A model generated the notes under the pieces. That model had not been told where the DNA came from. It ran no database searches and was given only the letters and a program-made list of their open reading frames with translations. DNA of 64,000 nucleotides from a virus. Taxonomy: Duplodnaviria > Caudoviricetes. Positions 15,436 to 31,163 of the stretch are shown piece by piece (position 1 is the stretch's first letter; every line of letters begins with the position of its first letter). The stretch covers positions 1 through 64,000 of IMG/VR virus record IMGVR_UViG_3300012971_000019; one strand, 5' to 3'. Made by a program: the position numbers and the translations under genes.

Positions 15436-16002
15436 ATGCCGTTCTATCCGTCTGAAACCATCGCCAAGGTGCTCAAGCTTACGCCGCGCCACGTCACCCG
15501 GCTGGCCGAGCAAGGAGTGATCCCGCTGCCGAACTCGGACGGCAAGTACGATCTGGTGCCGTGCGTGCAAGCCTACATCGAGTTCCTGCGCATGCGGCAC
15601 GGCGGCTCGAAGTCGGTGAAGTCGGCGCAGAAATTTTCCGCCGAACGAGCGCGCCTCTACGAGATGAAGGCCGACATCGCCGAGGTCGAGCGTGCGCGCC
15701 TGGTCGGCGATCTCGTCTCGGCCGAGGAAGTCGAAACGGTCTGGACTGATCTGGTCGCGGTCGCCAAAGCCAGGATGCTCGCGATCCCATCGAAGATGGC
15801 GCCGCGGTTGGCGTTGATCTCCAGCCCGACGAAAATCCGGGAGTTGCTCGACAGTGAACTATCAGCCGCACTCGGCGAGCTTGCAGGAGCTGCCGAAGTC
15901 GATCTCGATCCGGGCCAAGAGTACCCGCGTCGTCGAAATGGTGTGCACCGCGCTAAAGGCGTGGTCGCCGCCGCCAAAGCTGACAGTAAGCCAGTGGGCT
16001 GA
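15436..16002 (+). CDS. terS: terminase small subunit (Nu1-like)
   Basis: N-terminal HTH (IAKVLKLTPRHVTRL...GKYDLVPCVQAY), ERARL..KADIAE coil, ARMLAIP. Confidence 0.88.
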   Translation: MPFYPSETIAKVLKLTPRHVTRLAEQGVIPLPNSDGKYDLVPCVQAYIEFLRMRHGGSKSVKSAQKFSAERARLYEMKADIAEVERARLVGDLVSAEEVETVWTDLVAVAKARMLAIPSKMAPRLALISSPTKIRELLDSELSAALGELAGAAEVDLDPGQEYPRRRNGVHRAKGVVAAAKADSKPVG

Positions 16003-17914
16003 CGTTTATCGCGAGCTGTCGATGGAAGCAGCGGCCGAGCCCGGACGGTGGGTGACGGCGCGCGCTGAGTACCAACGCGGCATCATGGACTCGTTCTCGG
16101 ACCCGACGATTCACACGATCGTGGTGCCGAAGGCCTCGCAGGTCGGTTTCACCGAATGCGTGCTCAACGCGCTTGGGTTCATGGTGCATCAGGACCCCTG
16201 CCCGATCCTGATCCTGCAGCCGACCATCGACGCGGGCGAAACCTGGTCGAAGGAACGGCTGGCGCCGATGGTGCGCGACACGCCGGTGCTGCGCGGGCTC
16301 GTGCGGCAACCGATCAGTCGGTACACGGAAAATTCGCTGCGCTTCAAATCGTTCCCCGGCGGCTACATGGCGATCGTCGGCTCGAACGCGCCCGCGGGCC
16401 TGGCAGCGCGGCCGATCCGCATCGTGTTCGCCGATGAGGTCGATCGCTTCAAGACCTCGGCCGGCACCGAGGGCGATCCGCTGCAGCTCGCCGCGAAGAG
16501 ACAGACCACCTATTGGAACCGCAAGACACTGCTCGGCTCATCGCCGGGGCGAAAGGCCACATCGGTGATCTGGCGCGAATGGCTGAAGTCCGATCAGCGA
16601 CGGTTCTACGTTCCCTGTCCGCAATGCGAAGAGAAGCAAACGCTGCGCTGGGAAAATGTGCGCTGGGATAAAGCGCTCGACGGCGAGAAGCGTGCCGTGG
16701 GCGCGCAGTACTGGCCGCACAAGCCCGAGACCGCCTATTACGTTTGTGAGCACTGCGGCAATCCGTGGGACGATGTCGCGCGCTGGGAAGCGGTGTCGAA
16801 GGGCGAGTGGCGCTCGACCGCGCCGTTCAACGGCACGGCGGGGTTTCACATCCCGGGCTTCATCTCGCCGTGGCTGACGCTGACCGACATCGTGGTCGAG
16901 TTCCTCAAGGCGAAGGACGTTCCCGAGCTGCTGCAGGTGTGGGTCAACACCGTGCTCGGCGAGCCGTGGGAGGAAGCGGCCGAGGTCGTGGAGTCGTCGT
17001 CGCTGGTGTCGCGCGGTGAGCAGTACGGGCCCGAGCTGCTGCCCGATGGCGTCAAGATGATCGTGGCCGGCGTTGACGTGCAGGGCGATCGACTCGAATG
17101 CCAGGTGCTCGGCTTCGGTGTGCGCGAGGAGTGCTGGGCGATCGAGTACCACGTGCTGCCCGGCGATCCGGCGCAGCGGTTGCTGTGGGACGAACTCGAC
17201 GAGCAATTGCTCAAGACCTATCCGACCGAGGATGATCGGACGCTGCGCATCAGCGCGACCTGCATCGACACCGGCGGCCATCATGGCAACCAGGTGTTGG
17301 CATTCTGCAAGGCGCGGCGTGGGCGCAAGGTGCTCCCCATCAAAGGCGTGAGCGGCGCACGCCCGATCTGGCCCAAGCGCGAGAGCAAGGCGAAGAAAGA
17401 CTTCTATGTCGTCGGCGTCGATACCGCGAAGGACGCGATCTACGGGCGGCTGCGTATCCAGAAGCCGGGCCCGGGCTACATCCACTTCCCGGTCGGCACC
17501 GACTTCAATGCGCAGTATTTCGAGCAGCTCACCTGCGAGCGGGTGATCACGCGCTACAGGCTCGGGCATCCGGTGCGGGTATGGGAGAAGCCGGCCGGGG
17601 CCCGGAATGAAAGTTTCGACACCTTCGTCTATGCCCTGGCCGCCCGCCAGGCGCTGCCGGTCCGCTTCGAGCCGGCGCCGGTTCCGATCGAGCCCGCGCC
17701 CGTGGCCAATCGCCCGGCTGAGCCGCCGGTAAAGTCGCTGTTCGGTCCGCCGCCGCCCCAGAGGGTGCCAGAACCGCCTACGGAGCCTCATCCGCTGGCC
17801 GTCCGTGCGCCAGAACCGCCGAAGGCACCCCAGGCCGCCCCCGGCATTCCGCATCGCCCGTGGCGCCCGCAAGGGCGCTGGAGGCGCACCATGCGATCAC
17901 AGTACATGAGCTGA
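15938..17914 (+). CDS. terL: terminase large subunit (lambda gpA family)
   Basis: PPPKLTVSQWAD, KASQVGFT Walker A, VFADEVD Walker B, GVDVQGDR nuclease, RNESFDTFVYA; Pro-rich tail. Confidence 0.97.
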   Translation: MVCTALKAWSPPPKLTVSQWADVYRELSMEAAAEPGRWVTARAEYQRGIMDSFSDPTIHTIVVPKASQVGFTECVLNALGFMVHQDPCPILILQPTIDAGETWSKERLAPMVRDTPVLRGLVRQPISRYTENSLRFKSFPGGYMAIVGSNAPAGLAARPIRIVFADEVDRFKTSAGTEGDPLQLAAKRQTTYWNRKTLLGSSPGRKATSVIWREWLKSDQRRFYVPCPQCEEKQTLRWENVRWDKALDGEKRAVGAQYWPHKPETAYYVCEHCGNPWDDVARWEAVSKGEWRSTAPFNGTAGFHIPGFISPWLTLTDIVVEFLKAKDVPELLQVWVNTVLGEPWEEAAEVVESSSLVSRGEQYGPELLPDGVKMIVAGVDVQGDRLECQVLGFGVREECWAIEYHVLPGDPAQRLLWDELDEQLLKTYPTEDDRTLRISATCIDTGGHHGNQVLAFCKARRGRKVLPIKGVSGARPIWPKRESKAKKDFYVVGVDTAKDAIYGRLRIQKPGPGYIHFPVGTDFNAQYFEQLTCERVITRYRLGHPVRVWEKPAGARNESFDTFVYALAARQALPVRFEPAPVPIEPAPVANRPAEPPVKSLFGPPPPQRVPEPPTEPHPLAVRAPEPPKAPQAAPGIPHRPWRPQGRWRRTMRSQYMS

Positions 17915-17929
17915 TCTCGGAGCTGACCA

Positions 17930-18172
17930 ATGGTCTCGATGAATCCTCCGCTCGACCCGACGACGGCGCCATCCGGGTTTACGCTGGCCGAAAAGATAGC
18001 GCTCGAACAGGCCATCGCGTCCGGGACGCTGCACGTGTCCTATAACGGCAAGAGCGTGACCTATCGCTCACTCGACGAGCTGCGGCTGGCGCTGCACATG
18101 GTCAACAATTACCTGTTCGGCCCGCCGACCCGCACGTTCCTCACCCGCACCAGGGGCTGGAAGGGCCTCTAA
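17930..18172 (+). CDS. head-tail joining protein (gpW family)
   Basis: ALEQAIASG...VSYNGKSVTYRSLDEL between terL and portal. Confidence 0.85.
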   Translation: MVSMNPPLDPTTAPSGFTLAEKIALEQAIASGTLHVSYNGKSVTYRSLDELRLALHMVNNYLFGPPTRTFLTRTRGWKGL

Positions 18173-21100
18173 GTGGACGCTCGCACGAAGGACCCCGCCG
18201 GCATGATGTTCGGCGACGGGGTGAATTCGGCGCGCATCCGGGTTCGGCCGAAGGGCGCGGTGACGAGCGCCAAGGCGCAGCAGGATTGGGCGTGGCAACC
18301 AGGTGGCCCGTGGTGGTCGCCGTCGCAGCAGGGCTTCCAAGCCGCCAACGCGCGCCGCCGGCTGTCGCAGTGGCTCCCGAACAAGGGCACCATCAACACC
18401 CTGGTGACGCAGGGCGGCGAAATCCTGCGCGACCGCGCCCGCGACATGGTGCGCAACAACCCGCACGCGGCATCGGCGGCGGACTCCTATTGCGGCAACC
18501 TGATCGGCACCGGCATCCGGCCATCGTCGCTGATCCCCGATCCCACGCTGCGCACCGAGGTCAACAAGCTGTGGGCGCAATGGGCGTGCGAGTGCGACTC
18601 CGATGGCATGGTCGATTTCTATGGCCTGCAGGAGCTGGTCGCGCGCGCGTTGTTCGAGGCCGGCGAGGTGTTCCTGCGCTACCGGCCGCGTTCGATCGAG
18701 GATGGGCTGTGCGTGCCGCTGCAGCTCCACGTGATCGAGTCGGACATGCTCGATTTCTCGTACAATCTGCTCGCCGAGAACGGCAACCTGATCATGAACG
18801 GCGTCGAGTTCGACAACAGGCACCAACGCGTCGCCTATCATTTTTGGCCGTATCACCCCGGGCAGATCATCATTACGCCGCTGCGCGATTTCCGTTTTCG
18901 GGTGCGCGTGCCGGCCGAGGAGATTCTGCACATCTTCAAGCCGCGGCGGCCCGGTGATGTGCGCGGCGTGCCGATGGTGGCCTCGGCTCTGGTCAAGCTG
19001 TTCATGCTCGATCAGTACGACGACGCCGAGCTGGACCGTAAGAAAGTCGCGGCGATGTTCGCCGGCTTCGTCAAGTCGCCGCAGCCCGAGGAAATGCTGA
19101 TCCAGGATCAGAGCGGGCCGGCGTATCCGTGGGAGCCTGACGAAGGCCTGGTGACGCTGGAGCCCGGGACGATCCAGACGCTACTGCCCGGCGAGGACAT
19201 CACGTTCTCGGCGCCGGCCGCGGTCGGTGGCGATTACGAGCCGTTCCAGTATCGGCAGCTCCTGCCCGTGTTCCAGGCGATGGGCGTGCCGTACACCTTG
19301 GGTGCCGGCGATCTGCGGCATGCGAACTACAGCTCGTTGCGTGGCGCGATCGTCGAGTACCGCCGCCGCCTGGCGCAGGTGCAGAACAACGTCATCGTCC
19401 ATCAGATGTGTCGGCCGATTTGGGAGCGGTGGCTGCGCGATGCGGTGCTCTCGGAGTCGATCGACATCCCGGACTTCGCCAAAGACCCGCGGATGAATCT
19501 CTCCGTGAGATGGATTCCGCCGAAGTTCGAATGGGTTGATCCGCTCAAGGATCAGCAAGCCGAGAAGCTTGCAGTCGATGCCGGCTTCAAGTCGCGCTCT
19601 GACGTGATCGACGAGATGGGCGACGATCCGCTCGACACCGACATGCGGATCAAGCAGGACCATCTCCGCGAAAAGGCGCTCGGTCTCGACTTCCCGGCGG
19701 GCACCGGCAAAGGCAAGCCCGGTGCGCCCGGCCAGCCCGGTCAGCCAGGCCAGGAAGAGGGTGGCGGCAAGGAGTTTGACGGCTCCGACATCAAGGAGAT
19801 GCTCCAGGATCAGGGCATCGATCTCGACGACGATGTGCTGGAGAAGCTCACCGCCTCGATGCGCGAGAGGATCGAGGCCTTCGAGGAATCGCAACATCCG
19901 CGGGTGCCCAAGGGTACGACCGAGGGCGGACAGTTCACGAAGGCGGGCGACGGGGTCGAGACCGGGTCAAAAAAAAAATCAAGCGAGCCCGGCCTGGTCG
20001 GCGACGGCGATCAGCGTCAGACTGTCCCGTTCGGATTAGGACTCCCCGAGGGGTCCCCGCTCCAGAAGGCGATCGGCGCCGGCTCGGTCGGCTATGGCGA
20101 TGCCGAGAAGGTCGCCGAGCAGATTGCCAAGGCGGCCGGCGCCAACGTGCTGGCGACCCATCACGTGGTCGGCGGCTGGACCGACCCCTCGACCGGCGAA
20201 TATTCGTCGGAGCCGACCCTGGTCGGCGAGTTTCACGGGAAACCAACTGACGCGACTTTTGCGGCCGAGGCCATCGCGCATGTGCTCGGCCCGCAGAAGG
20301 AGGTGTGGGTCGTTCGCGATGCCGAGGGCTTCCCGGCCGCGCGCGATCTCCGTCTCGACATCATCCCGACCAAGCCTGGGGTGACGCCGCAGCAGCTCGC
20401 CGAGGTGGCGCGCAAGGTCGATCCTGAGCTGCTCGCCGGCTTCACGCAGACGGTTGACGGCGAGGGTCGCACCGGCATCACGCTGTTGATCCCCGAGGGC
20501 ATCGCGAAGCGCCCGCGTGCGGAGACGACCTCGGTCATGATCAACCCGATGGGCTCGATCCAGCCGATGGAGGTGCTGGTCAATCCGCGCGAGCGCGACA
20601 TCAAGGACTTGCTCAAGAACACGGACTTTGCCGAGGCTCGGGTGATCCGCGATGACGCCGGCAACCTCTATGTGTGGGACGCCTATGAGGCGATCCACCG
20701 ACCGGTGGCAAAGGCGCTCGGCGTCGAGCTGACCAAAGAGAATTATCTTCTCAACACCGACATCTGGACGCTGGTGAATGGCAAGCTCGTCAGCTCGGGC
20801 GTCGGATCGGATTGGATGAAGGAAAAGTTGCCGCGCCGCTGGATCGAGGAAACCCACGCGGTACCCAAGGGCCCGGCGACGATCGCGGATCGTGCCGATG
20901 CGGCGGTGATGAAGCTCGCGGGCGCGCTGGCCGATGCCGGGATTGATGCCGACGTGTTGCCGACCGCGGCGATCGTGGATAAAAGGATCGGCGATGCGAA
21001 AGATTGGCGGGGTTACAGTTCATCCCTTGAACGCGAAGCTGGGGCACATGCCGTCGCGGCGCTCGATGATTATCGTGCCCGGCTCGGCGAAAGCCTCGCC

Positions 21101-23515
21101 CAAGGCCGAGGCGTCCCAGCCTTCACCGAAGACCTCCGAGCCCTCGCGCGAGCCGCCCGACCGCAAGCCGAACCGCTGAAGGTCGCGGCACGGTTTTTCG
21201 CCTTTGATCCTGAGCAGCCGCGCGCACCCAAGGGATCACCCGAGGGCGGCCAGTGGACGAAAGACGGCGAGGAAGGCCTTTACAACGGCCCGACGCAGCC
21301 GGCTTATCACGGATCGAAGCAAGCCGGGTTTGAGCGGTTCACCGTTCCCGATCCGAAGAACGAGTTGATGATCGATCGAGCGATCGGTGTGCATGTCGCC
21401 AAAGACCCGAAGATGGCCGAGTATTTCACCAAGCTTGGTCCAGGCGATACGCGGGCACCGGGTGAAACCCACAAAGGCGGAATTTACGAGCTACGCATTC
21501 CGACTGACGAGCATTTGCTGGAGGTCGAGCAAAAGCACCTGCGGTGGGTCAAAAATCCGGCCGAACCGAAAAAGCCTGGCAACGTCGAGATCGATCAGGA
21601 CAAGATTGCGCGGCTTGTTTACGGCACGGCGTTTCGTGAGGATACCGATCTTTTCGCACGGCAGATCGAGCGAGATTTGCACCTCACCACAGAGGAAGCG
21701 AAGCACGGCGCTGAAGCGCTTGCGCACGATCAACCATGGACGAGCCCTCGGTTTGGCTCGACATATAAGAGCATCGACGAATATCTGGCCGATCGACCGA
21801 GCACGATTTTCGACACTGAGGATCGCGTGAAAGCGGTGGAGTTATTCCACGAGCAGATGGAGCGTCACGGCTATCTCGGGCTCAAGTACATCAACACGGC
21901 GCCGATGGAGACCGAGGGCATTGATGATCCGATCGCCTATGTGATCTTCAATCCGCGCAACATCCGCCACGCATTCACTGGCGCACGGGCGCGCATGCCG
22001 CTCGAAATTTTCGCCAAGGAGTTCGACGAGGCGCAACATCCGCGCGGCAAGACCACGCCCGAGTCGACGCCCGGAAGTTTCGCTCCCGAGGAAGGCGGCG
22101 GCGGCGTTGATCTCGTAGCCGGCCGCGTCGTTTTCCAATCCAAGTCCTCGATCCCGCCGACGCAGAAAGCCGCGACCACGCCGGCCGAGACCGAGGCCGA
22201 GGCGCGCAAGAGCGTCGAGGAATACGCCAAGGCGGCGCGTGACGCCGGCATCAATGTGCTGGTCGGCGGCCAGGGTCATCCGCTGCAAATCTCGACGCGC
22301 CTCCCGTGGGGCGTGAAGGGCAACGTCGAGAATGGCGATGAGGTTTATCTGCATCCCGATCTCGATGCATTGCGCCGCGAGCCGGAAAAGTTCGCGAGCG
22401 ACATGGCGCTGTTCAAAAATGCCGAGGACTATCCCGGTCTGCGACCGGAGGAAACCGATGGCACACCCGAGCAGATTGCGCGCAACGTGATCGACCGGCT
22501 GAAGTCGAACCTGAAATTCCTGTACGAGAACATGCCGACCGACATCCGCGATCGATCGGCCGACTGGTACGCAGGCGCGCGACGCATCGTCGATCGCAAG
22601 GCGCGGCAGTATGGGCTCAACGATGCCGCGGTTGCCGGGGCCTATGCGGCGCTCAGTCCGCAAAAGGATTGGTATCAGAACGTCTACCTGGGCGATCGGC
22701 TGATCGACATCTACCAGACGCAGCAGGACACGGCGTGGTCGCCCGAGATGGAAAAGACCGCCCGTCAAATCTGGAAAACCAAGCCGCAGAAGGCAGTCCT
22801 GAAAACCGTGCGCGGCAAGAAGCTCGGCGAGCTGACCGATCCGGTGCAAAAGGCCGAGTGGATTCGAACCTTTGACGAAACCTATAGCGACCGTTCCTTC
22901 AAGATCGTCACGCCGGAAGGCGAAGAGGACGGCTATGTCAAAACCAAAGCGGGCGAGAATTGGTCGGCGGCTTGGCAAACCAACGTGAACATCGCCAATG
23001 CGGTGATCGCGCTCGAATCGGGTGGCGATCGGAAGATCATCAGCCAGGCGATGGGCGCGGCGCACAAGGTGCGCTCGTTCTACAACAACTTCCTCGACCC
23101 GTACTCGACCAACGATGACGTGACGATCGACACGCATGCGACGGGGGCCGGATGGCTCCAGCCCTATGCCGGATCATCGACGGCGGTGCTGCACAGCCTG
23201 CACAGCAGTCCTCAGAAGGGGGACGCGCCGAAGAATTTCCGCAACGCGAGCGAATCGGCGGCCACCGGCAATTCCGGCACCTATGCGATCTACGCGACCG
23301 CGTACCGCGAGGCCGCGCACGAACTCGGTCTTTCGCCGCGCGCGCTGCAATCGCTCACCTGGGAAGCGCAGCGTGGTCTCTATGGCCGTGAGAGCAAGAA
23401 AGCGCTGGAGCGCACCAACGCGATTTGGACCGACTACCACAACGGCGTGATCGATCTCGATGAGGCGCGCCGCCGGGTCGTGAGCAATGGCTACCGGCCA
23501 CCGGATTGGTACTGA
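18173..23515 (+). CDS. lambda-family portal (aa ~1-510) fused to ~1270-aa tagged multi-effector extension
   Basis: Portal motifs RDRARDMVRNNPHA, PLQLHVIESD, RGVP, DLRHANYSSLRG, WIPPKFEWVDPLKD. The frame continues through three tag motifs and ART-like and HhH-like domains. Confidence 0.92.
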   Translation: MDARTKDPAGMMFGDGVNSARIRVRPKGAVTSAKAQQDWAWQPGGPWWSPSQQGFQAANARRRLSQWLPNKGTINTLVTQGGEILRDRARDMVRNNPHAASAADSYCGNLIGTGIRPSSLIPDPTLRTEVNKLWAQWACECDSDGMVDFYGLQELVARALFEAGEVFLRYRPRSIEDGLCVPLQLHVIESDMLDFSYNLLAENGNLIMNGVEFDNRHQRVAYHFWPYHPGQIIITPLRDFRFRVRVPAEEILHIFKPRRPGDVRGVPMVASALVKLFMLDQYDDAELDRKKVAAMFAGFVKSPQPEEMLIQDQSGPAYPWEPDEGLVTLEPGTIQTLLPGEDITFSAPAAVGGDYEPFQYRQLLPVFQAMGVPYTLGAGDLRHANYSSLRGAIVEYRRRLAQVQNNVIVHQMCRPIWERWLRDAVLSESIDIPDFAKDPRMNLSVRWIPPKFEWVDPLKDQQAEKLAVDAGFKSRSDVIDEMGDDPLDTDMRIKQDHLREKALGLDFPAGTGKGKPGAPGQPGQPGQEEGGGKEFDGSDIKEMLQDQGIDLDDDVLEKLTASMRERIEAFEESQHPRVPKGTTEGGQFTKAGDGVETGSKKKSSEPGLVGDGDQRQTVPFGLGLPEGSPLQKAIGAGSVGYGDAEKVAEQIAKAAGANVLATHHVVGGWTDPSTGEYSSEPTLVGEFHGKPTDATFAAEAIAHVLGPQKEVWVVRDAEGFPAARDLRLDIIPTKPGVTPQQLAEVARKVDPELLAGFTQTVDGEGRTGITLLIPEGIAKRPRAETTSVMINPMGSIQPMEVLVNPRERDIKDLLKNTDFAEARVIRDDAGNLYVWDAYEAIHRPVAKALGVELTKENYLLNTDIWTLVNGKLVSSGVGSDWMKEKLPRRWIEETHAVPKGPATIADRADAAVMKLAGALADAGIDADVLPTAAIVDKRIGDAKDWRGYSSSLEREAGAHAVAALDDYRARLGESLAQGRGVPAFTEDLRALARAARPQAEPLKVAARFFAFDPEQPRAPKGSPEGGQWTKDGEEGLYNGPTQPAYHGSKQAGFERFTVPDPKNELMIDRAIGVHVAKDPKMAEYFTKLGPGDTRAPGETHKGGIYELRIPTDEHLLEVEQKHLRWVKNPAEPKKPGNVEIDQDKIARLVYGTAFREDTDLFARQIERDLHLTTEEAKHGAEALAHDQPWTSPRFGSTYKSIDEYLADRPSTIFDTEDRVKAVELFHEQMERHGYLGLKYINTAPMETEGIDDPIAYVIFNPRNIRHAFTGARARMPLEIFAKEFDEAQHPRGKTTPESTPGSFAPEEGGGGVDLVAGRVVFQSKSSIPPTQKAATTPAETEAEARKSVEEYAKAARDAGINVLVGGQGHPLQISTRLPWGVKGNVENGDEVYLHPDLDALRREPEKFASDMALFKNAEDYPGLRPEETDGTPEQIARNVIDRLKSNLKFLYENMPTDIRDRSADWYAGARRIVDRKARQYGLNDAAVAGAYAALSPQKDWYQNVYLGDRLIDIYQTQQDTAWSPEMEKTARQIWKTKPQKAVLKTVRGKKLGELTDPVQKAEWIRTFDETYSDRSFKIVTPEGEEDGYVKTKAGENWSAAWQTNVNIANAVIALESGGDRKIISQAMGAAHKVRSFYNNFLDPYSTNDDVTIDTHATGAGWLQPYAGSSTAVLHSLHSSPQKGDAPKNFRNASESAATGNSGTYAIYATAYREAAHELGLSPRALQSLTWEAQRGLYGRESKKALERTNAIWTDYHNGVIDLDEARRRVVSNGYRPPDWY
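19969..19978 (+). repeat. A10 homopolymer within the portal-effector junction
   Basis: TCA AAA AAA AAA TCA, ~30 nt after tag 1, in a high-GC gene that otherwise prefers AAG. Confidence 0.9.
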
Positions 23516-24638
23516 TCCGCTCGTCGCGTGGATGCGCGCCAACAGCGTTGCAGTCAATCGCCGGAACTACATCGAGCTGAACTGGGGCGAGGTCCCCAAG
23601 CCATGGACGGTCGAAGACGAGAGCGAGCTGCCGGCCGAGCTGCAGGAGTGGTCGATCTTCGAGCGCGATGGGCCCGGCATTCGACTGCGCGCCGATCCGG
23701 TGACGAAGGCGCCGATCACCGCTGCCTGGATCGATCCGTTCACGGCCGAGTTCGACGAAGCGAAGCACCCGCGCGAGCCGAAGGGCACGAAGGAAGGCGG
23801 GCGGTGGACGAAGGGCGCGAACGAGATCGTCCATAATTACGAGGAGGCGACCAAGAAGCGCCATCACGGCGCGACCAGGCCGCCATCCTCGACGGCGCCG
23901 GAACATGAGCAGTGGCGACAGAAGGGGAAACCGGCAGACCTCGACCGCCAGGCGCAGGAGGCGGTCGTGCAGCTCGGTGGCACGCATCGCGAATATGGCG
24001 TTCTCGTGCAGAAAGGCGGCGATCTTTCCGAGGGCGCGCAGATCACCGTCATTCCCGGTGGAGAGCACAATGTTCCAGTGTCGGACGAGCTGCATGACGA
24101 GATGACGGCGATACCGCATGACTTTCACCACAATCATCCATCGGGCCTGCCGATCTCGACGCAGGACATCAATTATCTATCGAAATCGCCGAATGTCATG
24201 ACGGTGCATGCGCATTCCGGCACCGGCAATGGCACGACCTACTCGGTCTCGATCGCGGGGCGAACGGCCAAAAATCCGACCGCTGTATGGCCGACAAAGA
24301 TGGCCGGGATCATGCGGACGATTGCACGACGCGTGAGTGATCGAGGCTATCCGCTTGGTCCGCTGGGCCGGGCGGCGGTACGCCTCGATGACGAACATGC
24401 GACGACGACGGAGATCAACCACGCGCTCACGAAAATCGATCAGCATGCATTCAACATGGCGGCCGATAAGGCTGGGCTAATCCATTACGCCTACACACAT
24501 TCGCCAGAGGACGAGAAGTTTTTCGAGAAATTTGCCGATGAGCTGAAGGCGCAGGCCGAGATCGCGGACGACACATTCAGCAAGGTTCTGGCGTCACGCA
24601 AGATCGACCCGACCAAGCTGGCGAAGGAGCGTGAATGA
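23487..24638 (+). CDS. small N-terminal module + tag + JAB/MPN-like domain
   Basis: DPLVAWMRANSVAVNRRNYI...ELPAELQ module; EFDEAKHPREPKG...GGRWT tag; REYG...HHNHPSGLPISTQD. Confidence 0.8.
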   Translation: MATGHRIGTDPLVAWMRANSVAVNRRNYIELNWGEVPKPWTVEDESELPAELQEWSIFERDGPGIRLRADPVTKAPITAAWIDPFTAEFDEAKHPREPKGTKEGGRWTKGANEIVHNYEEATKKRHHGATRPPSSTAPEHEQWRQKGKPADLDRQAQEAVVQLGGTHREYGVLVQKGGDLSEGAQITVIPGGEHNVPVSDELHDEMTAIPHDFHHNHPSGLPISTQDINYLSKSPNVMTVHAHSGTGNGTTYSVSIAGRTAKNPTAVWPTKMAGIMRTIARRVSDRGYPLGPLGRAAVRLDDEHATTTEINHALTKIDQHAFNMAADKAGLIHYAYTHSPEDEKFFEKFADELKAQAEIADDTFSKVLASRKIDPTKLAKERE

Positions 24639-25738
24639 GTCTCCTGGTTGACCCACCGCATGAGCTGTTCGGCTCCGAGGCCGAGTGGCGGGCGTTCCTC
24701 GATGAGATGCACGAGGCCTGTGAGGACGGCGAGGACGACGCGCGCGAATACATCGCCATGGCCGAGCGCGTGCTGGCCGAGCGGCGCGACAAGCGGCCGG
24801 CGGTCAAGGTGAGCGCGCGTGGCGAACACGCCGCAGCTCGGGCGGCTCTATTGGCGACCGTCGCCTTCGAAGAATCCGAGCATCCGCGTGTACCGAAGGG
24901 AACGCCCGAAAAGGGTGGGCAGTTCACGAAGAAGGGCGAGGGCGGCGGCGGTGCGTCCGAGCGCAGGGTCGGGATACCGGGTCTCGGTGAGGAGCTGGCT
25001 GAACCGCTTCAGCCTCCGACCACGAAGACGACTGCCGACGATTTCAAGAAGGCCGGCATCGAACTCCTGATGCATCCGCGCGCGCAGCAAAAGTTCCTCG
25101 CCGATTGGAACGAGCGCGTCGATCAACCGCCCGAGCAGTTCCGCAAGGAGTTCCTCAACGGCTTGAACGGCACGATGGAGATCGGCGTAGAGGGCGATGG
25201 CGCGTGGACCCTGAAGGGAGACCTGCGCACGTCTGATGGCGAGAAGATGGGCAGCTATCGACGCGAGATCGATTTCAAACGCAAGGAAGCCGTTGACGAT
25301 TATTTTCGACTGGAAGAGGAGTTCACCGGGCTTTCGATCGGCAAAAAAATGCTCGCCGGAAACATCGAGAAGTACCGCGAGCTGGGTATCCAGTGTGTGG
25401 ACCTCACCGCCAATGTCGATGTCGGCTCTTACGCGTGGGCCCGATACGGCTTTGCGCCGTCGAAGAAGTCATGGGCTTATCTGCGGGACCATTTGCGCGC
25501 TCTCGTCCAGGAGGGCGCCGACGAAAACGAGAAACCAATCATCAAGGATCAGGGCGACCAGCAGCGCTTGCTCGAACTGCTCAAGTCGGACGATCCCAAG
25601 ACGCTGTGGGCGATTGCCGATTCGAAATACGGTAAGGCGTTGCTGACCGACAATTTTTGGGCTGGTCGCCTCGATCTCAATGATCGTGACACCATGCGGC
25701 GGTTCAACGACTACATAGCGAGGGCGTACCGTGCCTGA
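24635..25738 (+). CDS. small N-terminal module + tag + GNAT acetyltransferase-like domain
   Basis: LVDPP...EAEWRAFLDEM module; AFEESEHPRVPKG...GGQFT tag; DYFRLEEEFTGLSIGK...LTANVDVGSYAWARYGF. Confidence 0.82.
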   Translation: MSLLVDPPHELFGSEAEWRAFLDEMHEACEDGEDDAREYIAMAERVLAERRDKRPAVKVSARGEHAAARAALLATVAFEESEHPRVPKGTPEKGGQFTKKGEGGGGASERRVGIPGLGEELAEPLQPPTTKTTADDFKKAGIELLMHPRAQQKFLADWNERVDQPPEQFRKEFLNGLNGTMEIGVEGDGAWTLKGDLRTSDGEKMGSYRREIDFKRKEAVDDYFRLEEEFTGLSIGKKMLAGNIEKYRELGIQCVDLTANVDVGSYAWARYGFAPSKKSWAYLRDHLRALVQEGADENEKPIIKDQGDQQRLLELLKSDDPKTLWAIADSKYGKALLTDNFWAGRLDLNDRDTMRRFNDYIARAYRA

Positions 25739-27641
25739 ACGGGGGGAGCTTTTCTACCTCGACGCTGCCGGCAAGCAGCAGGACGCCAAGCTGCACGAGG
25801 AAATCCTCGCAGGCGATCACGACGATGCGCTTGAGGTCACGCGCGAGCGCCTACGCGCCATGGGATGGGCTGATGACGTGATTGCGGATTTTCTCGGTGA
25901 GAACAGGCCGAGCGCTCGATCGCGCGGAGCTGCGGCGCGAGCCGCCCGCCTGGCGGCAGTTGCCTTCGAGGAGTCTCAACATCCGCGTGGGCCGAGCGCG
26001 CCTGGTCACAGCAGCGGCGAGTTCAAGAAGAAGGGGAACGGCGAAGCCGGTGCTGGCGGCGGCGAAGAGAAGCAGGTTGGCGTGGATGTCGGCGGCGACA
26101 AAAAGGCCTCGCCCGAAGTCCCTGAGAGCCTGGTAAAGGCGATCGAGGATCACGTCGAGGCGATGGCGGGCCGAGGGAGTCGCGCCGGTGCGGCCGACCT
26201 GTCGAAATGGCTGTGCCTCACGCATGGCGATGAAATCGAAAAGCTCGTCGATTCGTATAAGCAGGAGGAAGCGACGACAGTCGGCACCACCCCTCGCTTC
26301 GGGCCGATCCTTCTGCTGCACAAGGGCGATACGAAAAAGGGCGTGCCCACCATGTGGTTGCTCACATGGAGCAAGAACGACATCACCAGCATCCATGACC
26401 ATCTCGAATCCGAGGTCGGCGTTTCGGTGTTGCGCGGCAACGTCGGCAATCGCGCGTATAGTACCGGCGAAGGGTATCTCGACAAAGCGAAAAGCAAGGA
26501 AGGTTTGGAGTCGCGTTTTGGCGAACAAATCCTAAAGCCAAAGCAAACCGTACAAATTAAGTCGCCCTACATTCACGAAATGTATGGCACCGCCGAGTCA
26601 GGCCAGAAGCGCGACATCACCGTGCACGCGTATTATCCGCCGCTCTCGCACATGCACTATTTCAGGAAAGACAAGGACGGCAAGCTGCACTATGCCGGTG
26701 ACTGGGACGAGGATCGCGAACCACAAGACTGCATGATCGAAACCGGCGAGCCGACGAAGGGGCCGTCGAAAGCAACCGCCAGCATGGGCTTTTGTCCGTG
26801 CTGCAGCGTCAAGCGCGAATTGGCCAGATGGGGTGCGGATGCACCGCGTCACGAGCCGAGTGCTCGATCCCGGCGGGCCGAGGGGCGAGCTGCGCGCCTG
26901 GCGGCAATCGCGTGGGATGAATCGAAGCACAAGCGCGGCAAGACTTCACCCGGAACGACGCCGGGGAGCTTTGCCCCGGAGGGCGGCGGCGAGGAAGGCG
27001 GCGGCGAGGCCAAGCGCGAAAAGGCCGCGCCAGAGCGCAAGACGACTGCGGTCAAGCCGTCGATCGCCAACGCCGACAAGATCAAGGCCGCCTGGGTTGC
27101 GGCGTCACCGCACACCTCGGTCGATAGCCTGGTCGAGCATGCGCCCGCCGATCAGGGCGAGCTGGTGACCCTCGCGCAGCAGATCGAGCGCGACACCGGC
27201 GCCAAGCTGCACAATCCTGGCATCAAGAAGCGGGAGCGGATCGAGGAGAAGCTCAAGCTCGCCGGCCGCAAGCCGCAGTCGATCTCCGACGCCGTGCGCC
27301 TCGGGTTCGAGGTCTCATCGCCCGAGCAGGCCGACGCGATCATCGATCGGCTGAAGCAAAAATATCTGGTGGCCGACGAGGGCTGGCAGATGAAGCCGGT
27401 CGGCTACTTCGATCGCAAGGTCACCTTGCGCTTTGCCGATGGGATGATGGGCGAGGTGCAGCTCTGGCCGACCATCATGCTGGTCGCGAAGCAGACGAAG
27501 GGTCACGCACTCTACGAGCGGGCCCGGACGTTGCCGCCAGGGCCGGCGAAAGAAGAAGCGAACCGGGAGATGAGCAGCTTCTACCACGGCCTCGATGTGC
27601 CGAGGGCCTGGAAGGACGAGCTGGGCAGGTTCGGGAGCTGA
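25731..27641 (+). CDS. small N-terminal module + tag + cysteine-dioxygenase-like cupin + tag + RelA/SpoT synthetase-like domain
   Basis: WLLTW..NDITSIHDH...YIHEM...TVHAYYPPL cupin; KKRERIEEK...ISDAVR...GYFDRK...EVQL...GHALYE. Confidence 0.85.
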   Translation: MPERGELFYLDAAGKQQDAKLHEEILAGDHDDALEVTRERLRAMGWADDVIADFLGENRPSARSRGAAARAARLAAVAFEESQHPRGPSAPGHSSGEFKKKGNGEAGAGGGEEKQVGVDVGGDKKASPEVPESLVKAIEDHVEAMAGRGSRAGAADLSKWLCLTHGDEIEKLVDSYKQEEATTVGTTPRFGPILLLHKGDTKKGVPTMWLLTWSKNDITSIHDHLESEVGVSVLRGNVGNRAYSTGEGYLDKAKSKEGLESRFGEQILKPKQTVQIKSPYIHEMYGTAESGQKRDITVHAYYPPLSHMHYFRKDKDGKLHYAGDWDEDREPQDCMIETGEPTKGPSKATASMGFCPCCSVKRELARWGADAPRHEPSARSRRAEGRAARLAAIAWDESKHKRGKTSPGTTPGSFAPEGGGEEGGGEAKREKAAPERKTTAVKPSIANADKIKAAWVAASPHTSVDSLVEHAPADQGELVTLAQQIERDTGAKLHNPGIKKRERIEEKLKLAGRKPQSISDAVRLGFEVSSPEQADAIIDRLKQKYLVADEGWQMKPVGYFDRKVTLRFADGMMGEVQLWPTIMLVAKQTKGHALYERARTLPPGPAKEEANREMSSFYHGLDVPRAWKDELGRFGS

Positions 27642-27861: not shown

Positions 27862-29634
27862 ATGCCGATCCCGAAGCCAGGCGGTGGCGAATCCGAAAGC
27901 GACTACGTCAGCCGGTGCATGGAGAAGCTCGCCGACGATTTCCCCGATCAAGAACAGCGGGCGGCCGTTTGCTACCGCACATACCGAGAGGCTAACGCCA
28001 TGCCGAACATCACTGCCCAGGAAGAGGACGACGAGGACGAGCGCCGCCGTCGCGCCCGCGCCCGCAAGGAGGACGATGACGAAGGCGACGACAACGACGA
28101 TGATGATGATGACGAAGAGGAAGGCGACGACGAGGAGCGCGAAGATCGGCGCCCGCGGCGTCGCGGCGGCGAGCGCGAGAGCCAGGCCGGCAACGGCTAC
28201 AGCGCCCGTGCGCCGCGGCCCTGGTTCCAGATGAAGGCCAAGGACGACAAGTCGACCGCGGAGGTGCTCATCTACGATGAGATCGGCCCCGGGATGTTCG
28301 GCGGTGGTCTGTCCGCCAAGGACTTCCACAAGGAGCTGCAGGGGCTGGGCAAGGTCAAGGAGATCATGCTGCGGATCAATTCGCCGGGCGGCAACGTCTT
28401 CGACGGCCTTGCGATCTACAACATGCTCAAGGCTCATCCGGCGCGCATCACCGCCAAGGTCGATGGTGTGGCGGCGTCGGCGGCGTCGCTGGTCGCCATG
28501 GCGGCCGACAAGATCACCATGCCGAAGAACGGGTTCCTGATGCTGCACAAGCCTCAGGCGATGGTCATGGGCGATGTCGACGACATGCGGGCGATGGCCG
28601 ACGATCTCGAACGCATGACCAAAGTTTTCGCCCAGTGCTATTCGGCACGCTCGAACGGCAAGAAGACGGCCAAAGAGATGACGGTGCTCATGGCCGAGTC
28701 GCGGTTGATGGATGCGACCGAGGCGATGGCGTTCGGGCTCACCGACGAGGTCGCGGACCCGGTGAAGATGACGGCGTGCTTCGACATCCGCAAGCTGCCG
28801 ACGAGGGCCGCCCAGGCGCGCATCCAGGCCGAGTTCACTGTGGCGACCGGCTGGGGCATCCCGAAGGACGACGACGAGGATGAGGACGAGAACGTGATCG
28901 AGACCGGCTCGGTCGATCCGTTCGACGACACGGCGTTGCTTCCGGTCGATGAGAACGGCCTGATGGTGCCGCCGGCCAAGGGCGGCAAGAGCGTCGAGGA
29001 GTCGTACGAGAGTGGGCTTTCGACCCCGCCGTTCAACGATCTCGGCAGCGAGCCCGAGGATTTGGACACCGAGTCATCGTCGCTCGACCTTCCGAGGAAG
29101 GGCGGCAAGGGAAAGAGGAGCGCGAAGATGAAGGCGCAGGATGACGATCTCTTCGGCACGGGCTCACCGGGCGATGCCGGCAAGGCGACCAAAAAGGTGG
29201 CGCCGAAGGAGTACGACGACGAGGAAGAGGACGAGGAGTCCGAGCTGTTCGGCGAGGGCGCGGTGAGCACCGAGCGGGCGAGCAAGGCCTCGCGCAAAGC
29301 GGTCGAGGCGCTCCGCGTTGCCGCTGGCGTTCGGCCCTATGGTCGCAAAGAGATGAAGGAGACGATGGAGCTGTGCGCGCTCGCTGGCGTATCGGCCAAG
29401 GTCGCGCACGAGTTCATCGCACAGAAAACGCCGGTCGCCCAGGTGCGGCGCGAGCTGATGGACCGGCGTGTGCTCCGCGACGCCGAGACCCAAATCCTTG
29501 GCCGTCAGCCGGCCTACGACGCCGCGCGCAGCGAAAAGGAATCACAGAACTCTTGGCAGAAAGCGATCAACGAGGTGAACGCAAGAGTCGTGATGCCCGA
29601 GGTGGGGAAAACAATGATCGATCGTTCAAACTGA
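27862..29634 (+). CDS. ClpP-type (S14) prohead protease with N-terminal extension and C-terminal scaffold
   Basis: LIYDEIG, INSPGGNVFDGLAIYN, GVAASAAS (Ser), MLHKP (His); acidic linkers; helical C-terminal scaffold. Confidence 0.95.
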   Translation: MPIPKPGGGESESDYVSRCMEKLADDFPDQEQRAAVCYRTYREANAMPNITAQEEDDEDERRRRARARKEDDDEGDDNDDDDDDEEEGDDEEREDRRPRRRGGERESQAGNGYSARAPRPWFQMKAKDDKSTAEVLIYDEIGPGMFGGGLSAKDFHKELQGLGKVKEIMLRINSPGGNVFDGLAIYNMLKAHPARITAKVDGVAASAASLVAMAADKITMPKNGFLMLHKPQAMVMGDVDDMRAMADDLERMTKVFAQCYSARSNGKKTAKEMTVLMAESRLMDATEAMAFGLTDEVADPVKMTACFDIRKLPTRAAQARIQAEFTVATGWGIPKDDDEDEDENVIETGSVDPFDDTALLPVDENGLMVPPAKGGKSVEESYESGLSTPPFNDLGSEPEDLDTESSSLDLPRKGGKGKRSAKMKAQDDDLFGTGSPGDAGKATKKVAPKEYDDEEEDEESELFGEGAVSTERASKASRKAVEALRVAAGVRPYGRKEMKETMELCALAGVSAKVAHEFIAQKTPVAQVRRELMDRRVLRDAETQILGRQPAYDAARSEKESQNSWQKAINEVNARVVMPEVGKTMIDRSN

Positions 29635-29649
29635 GAATGGAGAGACATC

Positions 29650-30036
29650 ATGGTAACCTTTACCGAACCTCGGCATCCTGGTGAATTCGTGCTCTGGGAG
29701 CAGGGCGGTCATCTGAGCCGAGACAATATCGTCATCGCGTCCGGTCAAGGAGTCGTCAAAGCCGGAACGGTGCTTGGCAAGGTGACGGCGAGCGGCAAAT
29801 ACCTCATTTCCGCTCCTGCCGCGGCTGATGGATCGCAAACGCCGGCAGCACTCAACCTTTACCAGGTTGATGCGACCAGCGCTGATCAGCCGGTCTCGGC
29901 GATCACGCGTGAAGCGGAAATCAACGGGCCGACGATCACCTACCATTCGACCATCAACACCGGTCCGTTGGTCGTGGCAGCAAACGCATCGCTGGCGGCG
30001 GCCCACATCATCGTGCGGTCGCGCACGACACCGTAG
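29650..30036 (+). CDS. head decoration protein (gpD/HDPD-like)
   Basis: SRDNIVIASGQGVVKAGTVLGKVTASGKY...AADGSQTPAA; position before capsid. Confidence 0.9.
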   Translation: MVTFTEPRHPGEFVLWEQGGHLSRDNIVIASGQGVVKAGTVLGKVTASGKYLISAPAAADGSQTPAALNLYQVDATSADQPVSAITREAEINGPTITYHSTINTGPLVVAANASLAAAHIIVRSRTTP

Positions 30037-30063
30037 CGATCAGCCGCATATACGAGCCGCAAG

Positions 30064-30087
30064 GCCGCGCGGGAGCGCGGCTTTTTT
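30064..30087 (+). terminator. intrinsic terminator-like hairpin between decoration and major capsid genes
   Basis: GCCGCGC-GGGA-GCGCGGC-TTTTTT. Confidence 0.7.
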
Positions 30088-30140
30088 GTTGTCCCGAAGC
30101 CCGCCGCGACGGCGCGCATCCCTCGATGGAGTGATTCGAA

Positions 30141-31163
30141 ATGTTACTCGACATCTTCAACAACAACGCGTTCGGGGTGATTGCTCTCACCGACGCGGTG
30201 AACAAGCTCCGCTTTGTCCCAGGACTGCTGGGCAAGATGGGGCTCTTTACGGAAACCTCGATCTCCGTGACGACCGCGACGATCGAAGATCGCCAGGGCG
30301 TCCTGGCGCTGGTGCCACCGACACCACGCGGTGGGCCCGGTCTTGCGATCGACAAGTTCAAGCGTCACCTGTTCGCGATCCCGGTGCCGCACTTCGAGAT
30401 CAACGACTCGGTGATGGCCGAGGAGGTGCAGAACCTCCGGCCGTTCGGTGAATCGACCGGTCTCATGTCGGTGCAGACGATGCTCTCGCAACGGCTGCAG
30501 CAGCATTCGCAATCGGTGGAAGCCACGCTCGAATACTCGCGGGTCGGCGCGGTCAAGGGCGTCATCACCTACGCGGACGGAACGACCCTCGATCTGTTTG
30601 CGACGTTCGGCGTCTCGCAACTCCCCGCGGTGCTGTTCGACCTCAGCAACGCCACGCCGGTCGCGGGTATCGTGCGTCAGAAATGTGCGGGGGCGATCCG
30701 CAGCATCGCGACCCAGCTCGACGGCGTGCCGTTCTCGGGCGTGTACGCGATCTGTGGCGATCAGTTCTTCGACAACCTGATTGCCAACGTCGAAGTCCGC
30801 GCCTCGTTCCTCAATCAAATCCAGGCCGCGGAACTGCGGACGGGATACGTGCATGGCGGCATGTCCTACGGTCGCTTCGAGTTCGGCGGCATCGTGTGGG
30901 AGAACTATCGTGGTTCGGTCGGCGGCCAACTCTTCGTCGATACCGACAAGTGCCACATCATGCCGCTGGTGCCAGGGCTATTCCGCACCGTATACGCACC
31001 GGCGGATTACATCGAGACCGTGAACACGCTCGGGCAGCGCATGTATGCCAAGCAGTTCCCGATGCCCAACGGCAAGGGCATCCATCTCGATACGCAGACC
31101 AACGGGCTTTGCTACTGCACGCGCCCGAACGTGCTGCTGGTTGGCCATATGGGCGCAACCTAA
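30141..31163 (+). CDS. major capsid protein (lambda gpE family)
   Basis: NAFGVIALTDAVN...FTETSI...TLEYSRVGAVKG...FEFGGIVWENYRG...DTQTNGLCYCTRP. Confidence 0.93.
   Translation: MLLDIFNNNAFGVIALTDAVNKLRFVPGLLGKMGLFTETSISVTTATIEDRQGVLALVPPTPRGGPGLAIDKFKRHLFAIPVPHFEINDSVMAEEVQNLRPFGESTGLMSVQTMLSQRLQQHSQSVEATLEYSRVGAVKGVITYADGTTLDLFATFGVSQLPAVLFDLSNATPVAGIVRQKCAGAIRSIATQLDGVPFSGVYAICGDQFFDNLIANVEVRASFLNQIQAAELRTGYVHGGMSYGRFEFGGIVWENYRGSVGGQLFVDTDKCHIMPLVPGLFRTVYAPADYIETVNTLGQRMYAKQFPMPNGKGIHLDTQTNGLCYCTRPNVLLVGHMGAT

Follow-up and report, generated by a model that had tools for sequence, protein, structure and literature searches.

In the window analysed here, the first 64 kb (64,000 nucleotides) of a single 81,049-bp contig of a tailed phage (IMG/VR record IMGVR_UViG_3300012971_000019; Caudoviricetes), a short peptide tag recurs seven times in four proteins encoded within the head-gene cluster, each time at the start of a protein module. 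In head-gene clusters from many phyla, the same tag is carried by portal fusions and MuF fusions as well as by free-standing effectors, and its sequence context indicates that it belongs with the module that follows, to which it is joined by a Gly-rich tether. We propose that it serves in general as the header of modules of head cargo and that it most likely acts as a docking or loading handle in the assembling head, a reading to which we assign a probability of about 45%.

An earlier note, made from the nucleotide sequence alone, had reported seven copies of the tag, and all seven were recovered in frame, at the positions given there, in four real open reading frames (ORFs) on the plus strand. 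Three are located in a portal-cargo fusion protein of 1780 aa (18173..23515): tag 1 (19880..19936; type I, FEESQHPRVPKGTTEGGQF; 52 bits with a hidden Markov model, HMM) at aa 570, tag 2 (21203..21256; FDPEQPRAPKGSPEGGQW, a variant with Q for H) at aa 1011 and tag 3 (22022..22081; type II, FDEAQHPRGKTTPESTPGSF) at aa 1284. The other four are found in the products of three stand-alone cargo genes: tag 4 (23751..23807; type I) at aa 89 of the gene 2 product, tag 5 (24866..24925; type I) at aa 78 of the gene 3 product, and tag 6 (25965..26024; type III, FEESQHPRGPSAPGHSSGEF) and tag 7 (26913..26972; type II, with HKR replacing HPR) at aa 79 and aa 395 of the gene 4 product. All seven were identified both with a regular expression for the motif and with tag HMMs. 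When the 81,049-bp genome was translated in all six frames, the regular expression gave exactly seven matches, all of which are the tags listed here, while 200 residue shuffles gave a mean of 0.135 matches and a maximum of 2. With two tag HMMs, the seven copies scored 27-56 bits and no other stretch of the genome exceeded 8 bits; both models were built with the seven copies, and their scores thus exclude an eighth copy and are no independent confirmation of the seven. On a profile of 130 sequences, of which 123 came from other viral contigs and 7 are the window copies, the latter scored 27-42 bits. All seven copies fit the definition of a header tag, in that they have the form [WF]-D/E-x-x-x-[HQ]-P-R ... 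G-x-[FW], stand at the start of a domain-sized module and are followed by a Gly-rich tether.

The local tags, which comprise 18 copies when those of three close relatives are included, fall into three subtypes: I, HPRxPKGxxEGGx[FW]T; II, H.RGKTxPxxTPGSFAP; and III, HPRGPSAPGHSxGEF. They represent the long form of a wider motif, a[WF]DESKHPRxPxGxxxGGx[FW], which also has a short form, WDESKHPRxxxGxF, common in the wider family as WDESKHPRxxxG[QKR]FG. The consensus of the wider family is a-a-[WF]-D-E-S-K-H-P-R-x-P-[AK]-G-[ST]-x-x-G-G-[QE]-[FW]-[AT]-P, with Gly enrichment thereafter; the Arg is invariant and the residue two positions before it is His or Gln in 97% of the sequences. The Gly-rich stretch described for the window tags was confirmed there and extends to the wider family, in which Gly accounts for about 30% of the residues at positions +15 to +17 counted from the invariant Arg. 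From a structure prediction with AlphaFold2 (AF2) on the 130-sequence tag alignment, a small fold was obtained with confidence (predicted local distance difference test, pLDDT, 82). In the predicted fold, the upstream helix leads into a short turn at the acidic residues, after which a bridge from a residue at or beside the invariant Arg to the distal aromatic residue closes a loop.

Over the first 36 nt, the DNA identity among tag copies ranges from 25 to 78%, the longest exact run common to two window tags is 14 nt, and about half of the identical residues between copies are specified by different codons. The last result shows that the tag is conserved as a protein and not as DNA, under selection at the protein level. 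The DNA likeness that had been noticed between the lead-ins to tags 6 and 7 was confirmed, with 71% identity over 84 nt (25907-25990 versus 26855-26938). Two other roles were considered for the peptide and rejected: an AT-hook-like DNA-binding role, the tag being net acidic, and self-cleavage via the D-E-S-K-H residues, of which Ser and Lys are conserved at only about 50%.

The earlier note had suggested that an HMM of the tag be built and used for a scan, and when this was done with protein clusters the tag proved to be widespread. An exhaustive profile search with the 18 local tags identified 854 cluster representatives at E<=1e-3, of which 126 were at E<=1e-10; the tagged proteins are often giant and carry up to nine tags each. 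Among the best 149 proteins of this search, the tag is located within 15 residues of the N-terminus in 41, 32 of which start with Met, and within 15 residues of the C-terminus in none; the median length of the tail is 283 aa, and the spacing between tags has a median of 227 aa and a 5th percentile of 100 aa. In a Pfam analysis of 92 tagged proteins, Phage_Mu_F was the commonest domain (25/92), with a median of 23 aa from the MuF domain to the next tag. Other domains on these proteins were ART-PolyVal, ADPrib_exo_Tox, Acb1, GNAT, Zeta_toxin, DUF3626, InPase, topoisomerase IB, CDO_I, NUDIX, ParB-like, LPD1, Portal_Mu and Peptidase_S78_2.

An independent viral sample was assembled with a DNA pattern for WDESKHPR, which matched more than 102 stretches of viral contigs, as a lower bound. 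Among the 83 tagged ORFs of this sample that were scanned, 19 Pfam matches were to five portal families, where one ORF may match two families. Other tagged ORFs matched LPD3, PBECR1, ADP-ribosyltransferase (ART) or MuF domains, and the neighbouring genes encode terminases, portals, MuF, DUF2213, capsid and cement proteins. Where a long ORF, mostly of portal size, has a single tag towards its C-terminal end, the tag is in every case followed by a linker and then by a small domain (44-212 aa). Among cultured phages, the tag is carried by Pseudomonas phage Orisa03 gp4, which consists of a portal, the tag and an ADP-ribosyltransferase, and by the portal of Xanthomonas phage PhiXhv-5. Searches of short tags against cultured phages with tblastn gave no match or only noise, and a search for protein homologs with the tag region recovered only the query itself at database-wide E-values.

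In prokaryotic genomes, the WDESKHPR pattern matched at least 120 stretches. The hosts among the matches listed include Chloroflexi, Bacteroidota, Firmicutes, Desulfobacterota, Alpha-, Beta- and Gammaproteobacteria, Actinobacteria, Verrucomicrobia, Planctomycetes and Melainabacteria, and the full G-x-[FWY] closure was present in 87 of 118 core matches among them. Some of the genes start with M-x-WDESKHPR, one of which has a glutamine-deamidase toxin domain. In a metagenome-assembled genome (MAG) of Clostridia, a gene for a 270-aa ADP-ribosyltransferase starting with M-A-WDESKHPR is located directly upstream of a Terminase_3 gene (L220:1220-2029); among the free-standing tagged effectors, this is the clearest case. 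A contig from a MAG labelled Thermococci, an archaeon (L180, CAZTOS010000005.1), also matches the DNA pattern, which may be due to chance, contamination or an archaeal virus.

That the tag heads modules is supported by its frequent N-terminal and very rare C-terminal location, by the Gly-rich tether and the domain-sized gap after it, and by the exchange of subtypes among equivalent positions of relatives. Under the reading that we prefer, the header would be composed of a short hydrophobic or Ala-rich helix, the core [WF]-D-E-x-x-[HQ]-P-R and a loop closed by G-x-[FW], and would precede each effector module. It would bind a conserved partner inside the assembling head, such as the portal, the scaffold or the interior of the shell, and this binding would load each module and hold it until ejection, much as the T4 capsid-targeting sequence or the cargo-loading peptides of encapsulins do for their cargo. 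In this phage, the three stand-alone proteins would enter the head via the tag, beside twelve portal-fused copies, and the portal-fused modules would need to be cut free to reach the host, with the cut probably in or next to the tag region. A docking handle explains why free-standing genes for tagged effectors are found beside packaging genes, including genes 2-4 of the window, which have no portal or MuF anchor.

Signals of this kind are known. In T4, a short N-terminal peptide of about 10 residues on the internal proteins and Alt binds the scaffold core and directs these proteins into the prohead, is removed at an L/I-x-E site by the gp21 protease, and the cargo is injected with the DNA. In encapsulins and bacterial microcompartments, short cargo-loading or encapsulation peptides, usually single and terminal, target diverse enzymes to a protein shell through a flexible linker; the shell of encapsulins is of the HK97 fold. 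In its N-terminal bias and its flexible tether, the tag resembles such cargo-loading peptides. The tag differs from the T4 signal in being longer, unrelated in sequence and repeated inside polyproteins. In addition, the head protease of the phage is of the ClpP type and not of the gp21 type, most tags are internal, and no consistent L/I-x-E site was identified before the tags. Likewise, the tag is unrelated in sequence to the encapsulin and microcompartment peptides, and binding to the shell would be by analogy.

Several observations weigh against a loading handle. Modules fused to a portal or to MuF reach the head without one, and the tag looks redundant there as a loading signal. We found neither proteomic nor genetic data on the tagged proteins, a search of the PDB sequences with two tag profiles recovered no chain with the tag, and no binding partner emerged. 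Also, ten loci with N-terminal tags (L155-L267) have mixed neighbours, including ArdA, (serine) recombinases, AbiEii and housekeeping genes along with genes of the terminase and portal type. A capsid-only distribution is therefore not proven, and some tagged genes may reside in mobile elements other than prophage head modules. The interpretation in the earlier note is supported in part: the tie to head cargo is borne out by the portal fusions, MuF and polyvalent proteins and by the terminase, portal and capsid genes in the neighbourhood, and free-standing effectors with only an N-terminal tag beside a terminase gene fit targeting. More doubtful is a broader version, in which the tag would address proteins to the lumen of tailed-phage heads universally and would be necessary and sufficient for loading any protein, and hence for delivery to the host, in phages of most bacterial phyla; a tag profile would then predict injected phage effectors much as signal-peptide predictors do for secreted proteins.

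It is unlikely that the tag is solely a processing site, at which a protease of the head, of the host or of the cargo's own peptidase domain cuts the polyprotein, with loading through the portal or MuF anchor or through the N-terminal leads. Unless it is cut, cargo fused to a portal cannot exit the virion, and nothing but the tag is conserved at all of the junctions. The Ala that had been seen 1-3 residues upstream of the tag, and that had been taken to mark a cleavage site for the ClpP-type head protease, is indeed present within this distance in 7/7 window copies and in 18/18 copies with the three close relatives, but it is not conserved in the wider family, where Ala accounts for 23-28% of the residues per position. 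Many tags directly follow the start Met, with nothing upstream to remove, and the conserved stretch of 20-30 residues with a predicted fold extends far beyond the usual protease sites. Moreover, the tag is carried by five Pfam portal families, while a homolog of the window protease was identified in 0/102 tag-bearing viral loci (868 kb), many of which are short, such that single absences are weak; the tag and the family of ClpP-type prohead proteases were thus not found to co-occur. Taken together, the local nature of the Ala, the five portal families and the missing protease leave the proposed cut by a ClpP-type protease at the Ala unsupported. A DUF2213-type protein was present in 19/102 of these loci, and one record annotates such a protein as a head maturation protease.

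The probability is lower still that the tag acts during or after ejection, as a signal for threading or export through the tail or as a peptide that binds a universal host factor. A universal partner, for which the ejection channel or a conserved protein of the host might qualify, would be in keeping with one flexibly tethered tag per module and with the extreme conservation of the tag from one host phylum to another, and the tag stays with the downstream module where genes have been split naturally. This alternative comes without a candidate partner, and the head-gene context fits loading equally well; the data do not separate the two.

A comparison of 38 viral contigs with a related portal shows how the tags behave over short evolutionary distances. 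Tags were identified only in the three closest relatives (L002-L004, 80-85% portal identity), and none in the other 35 loci, which have lambda-type portals of 43-49% identity. The tag has therefore not been inherited with the portal family. In L003, the portal and one tag are followed directly by module B, with module A of the window absent, and the next tag is followed by a module of about 600 aa, which in L004 is found behind module D in another gene. This module (L003:3400-4489 and L004:8325-10100; here module X) has no known family, has different neighbours in the two relatives and is absent from the window. In ORF3 of L004, the lead of gene 3 is joined directly to modules F and G, while module E and the lead of gene 4 are absent. 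At 4/7 equivalent positions, the window tag whose DNA is nearest to the L004 tag is not the one at that position; modules F and G, for instance, have tags 6 and 7 interchanged in front of them. The sequences thus indicate that the tag is generic and that its subtypes swap between positions.

The switch point could be placed in ORF3 of L004, in which the homology to gene 3 stops about 20 nt into the tag, a stretch similar to tag 7 comes next, and the homology to module F resumes past the linker. The suggestion of the earlier note that the tag DNA is also a recombination joint for swapping payloads has thereby gained support, since the edges of module gain and loss are at tags, the subtypes are permuted and one homology switch lies inside a tag. 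We therefore include in the proposed reading that the conserved in-frame tag may also be a site of module exchange. The least probable of the alternatives is that the tag is chiefly a joint of evolution, an in-frame linker whose conservation serves module shuffling and which has no binding or signalling role: the module edges in the window versus L002-L004, the independent movement of subtypes and domains and the end of homology inside the tag of ORF3 would all fit, but the peptide is under selection, as seen from the different codons and the short exact runs, and its residue pattern persists in phyla that are unable to recombine their DNA with one another.

The lead of gene 3 is retained in L004 (75% identity) on a different payload, and lead and tag therefore behave as a unit. 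Leads of 77-88 aa are found at the start of each of the stand-alone cargo genes of the window (23487-23750, 24635-24865 and 25731-25964).

The protein class to which these genes belong has been described before. Phage-type polyvalent proteins combine several enzymes in one polypeptide; their genes adjoin those for the portal and the terminase, and packaging and injection have been predicted for them (Iyer, Burroughs, Anand, de Souza, Aravind 2017, PMC5512222; also PMC9503650). Their domain repertoire is the same as that of the tagged proteins (ART, GNAT, Acb1/2H, NUDIX, InPase, LPD, RadC, RelA/SpoT). MuF polymorphic toxins (Jamet et al. 2017, PMC5576092) likewise combine a head-associated anchor with a variable C-terminal toxin, while the window proteins differ in that none of the four tagged proteins has Phage_Mu_F (PF04233), even at E<=10, and the anchor is the portal. 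Unrelated effector domains are combined in the window, with three modules in the portal fusion, one of which contains DUF7178, and a cysteine-dioxygenase (CDO)-type cupin together with a Tas1-like module in gene 4. The four genes are located in the head cluster between the gpA terminase and the genes for the ClpP-type protease and the D and E proteins, with the first one fused to the portal. By domain make-up and gene context, the four window proteins belong to the class of phage-type polyvalent, portal- or MuF-fused effectors.

Processing of polyvalent proteins has been proposed to occur via zincin-like metallopeptidases (PMC5512222, PMC9503650). No Pfam match to such a peptidase was obtained for the four tagged window proteins, in which HExxH was not searched for. 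Term searches of PMC5512222 and PMC9503650 turned up no passage on a conserved junction or header peptide, and the words motif, linker and cleavage are absent from PMC5576092. A literature search for the motif strings and for a description of the tag gave nothing relevant within an incomplete coverage of the literature, and no family in Pfam, NCBIfam or PHROGs covered the tag when the tag segments and the four proteins were searched. While the protein class is known, the tag itself provisionally appears to be undescribed.

The cargo region is placed within a lambda-like head module, all on the plus strand, bounded by a large terminase of the lambda gpA type (15854..17914; Pfam GpA_ATPase 1.8e-82, GpA_nuclease 1e-88) and a ClpP-type head maturation protease of 590 aa (27862..29634; CLP_protease 1.2e-27, PHROG head maturation protease 5e-66), downstream of which are lambda D-like decoration and E-like major capsid proteins (29650..31163; HDPD 2.1e-35, Phage_cap_E 1.2e-90). 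The gap between terminase and portal contains an ORF of 80 aa (17930-18172) in the position of lambda gpW, without a Pfam match. A megablast search with the 13.8 kb region from the terminase to the protease identified no close cultured phage. The three stand-alone cargo genes are tightly coupled. Each cargo frame opens 0-4 codons ahead of its start codon; the four cargo genes are therefore separate genes and not one read-through frame, and their fusion by frameshifting is unlikely.

The architecture of the window proteins is portal-tag 1-A-tag 2-B-tag 3-C, lead-tag 4-D, lead-tag 5-E and lead-tag 6-F-tag 7-G. In the first protein, a lambda-family portal (aa 1 to ~545; Phage_portal_2 1.2e-103 at aa 61-404, TIGR01539 3.4e-113 at aa 61-508) is followed by three tag-headed modules, which amount to about 1,200 aa of portal-fused cargo. 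Module A (19937..21202, ~420 aa), which is present in L002 and L004 and absent from L003, matched no Pfam family and gave nothing in an Atlas search. Module B (21257..22021, ~255 aa) is a candidate ADP-ribosyltransferase, as a lead only, from an Atlas feature match to ART-PolyVal clusters at 0.87, which is under the reliable range; its AF2 model (pLDDT 48) was unusable. Module C (22082..23512) contains DUF7178 (PF23802, 3.1e-23).

Gene 2 (23487..24638, 383 aa), which has a homolog in L004 and no Pfam match, encodes an 88-aa lead, tag 4 and module D. This module contains a motif HNHPSG..S..D, which is RadC/JAB-like by eye without a match to a family; the segment HDFHHNHPSGLPISTQD (~aa 205-230 of the product of 23487-24638) resembles the RadC/JAB metal-site motif without support from Pfam or PDB. 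Gene 3 (24635..25738, 367 aa) encodes a 77-aa lead, tag 5 and module E, which has a weak likeness to the N-terminal part of proteins annotated as 'minor head / morphogenesis' in other phages. Gene 4 (25731..27641, 636 aa; Pfam, phmmer) encodes a 78-aa lead, tag 6, module F with a cysteine-dioxygenase-type cupin domain (26328..26666; PF05995 4.9e-10, aa 200-312), tag 7 and module G (26973..27638). The last is weakly similar over ~126 aa to Tas1, a (p)ppApp-synthetase toxin of the RelA/SpoT type (phmmer against PDB 6ox6, E 0.013).

The proteins that a phage injects along with its DNA are the first to act against host defences, and they are hard to recognise from sequence. A header that is common to portal fusions, MuF fusions and free effectors provides a sequence handle, by which the module after the tag becomes a candidate injected effector. 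If the tag is a loading signal, it could be used in laboratory strains to place chosen proteins in phage heads. For the evolution of these cargo arrays, the patterns point to whole modules being swapped at the tags.

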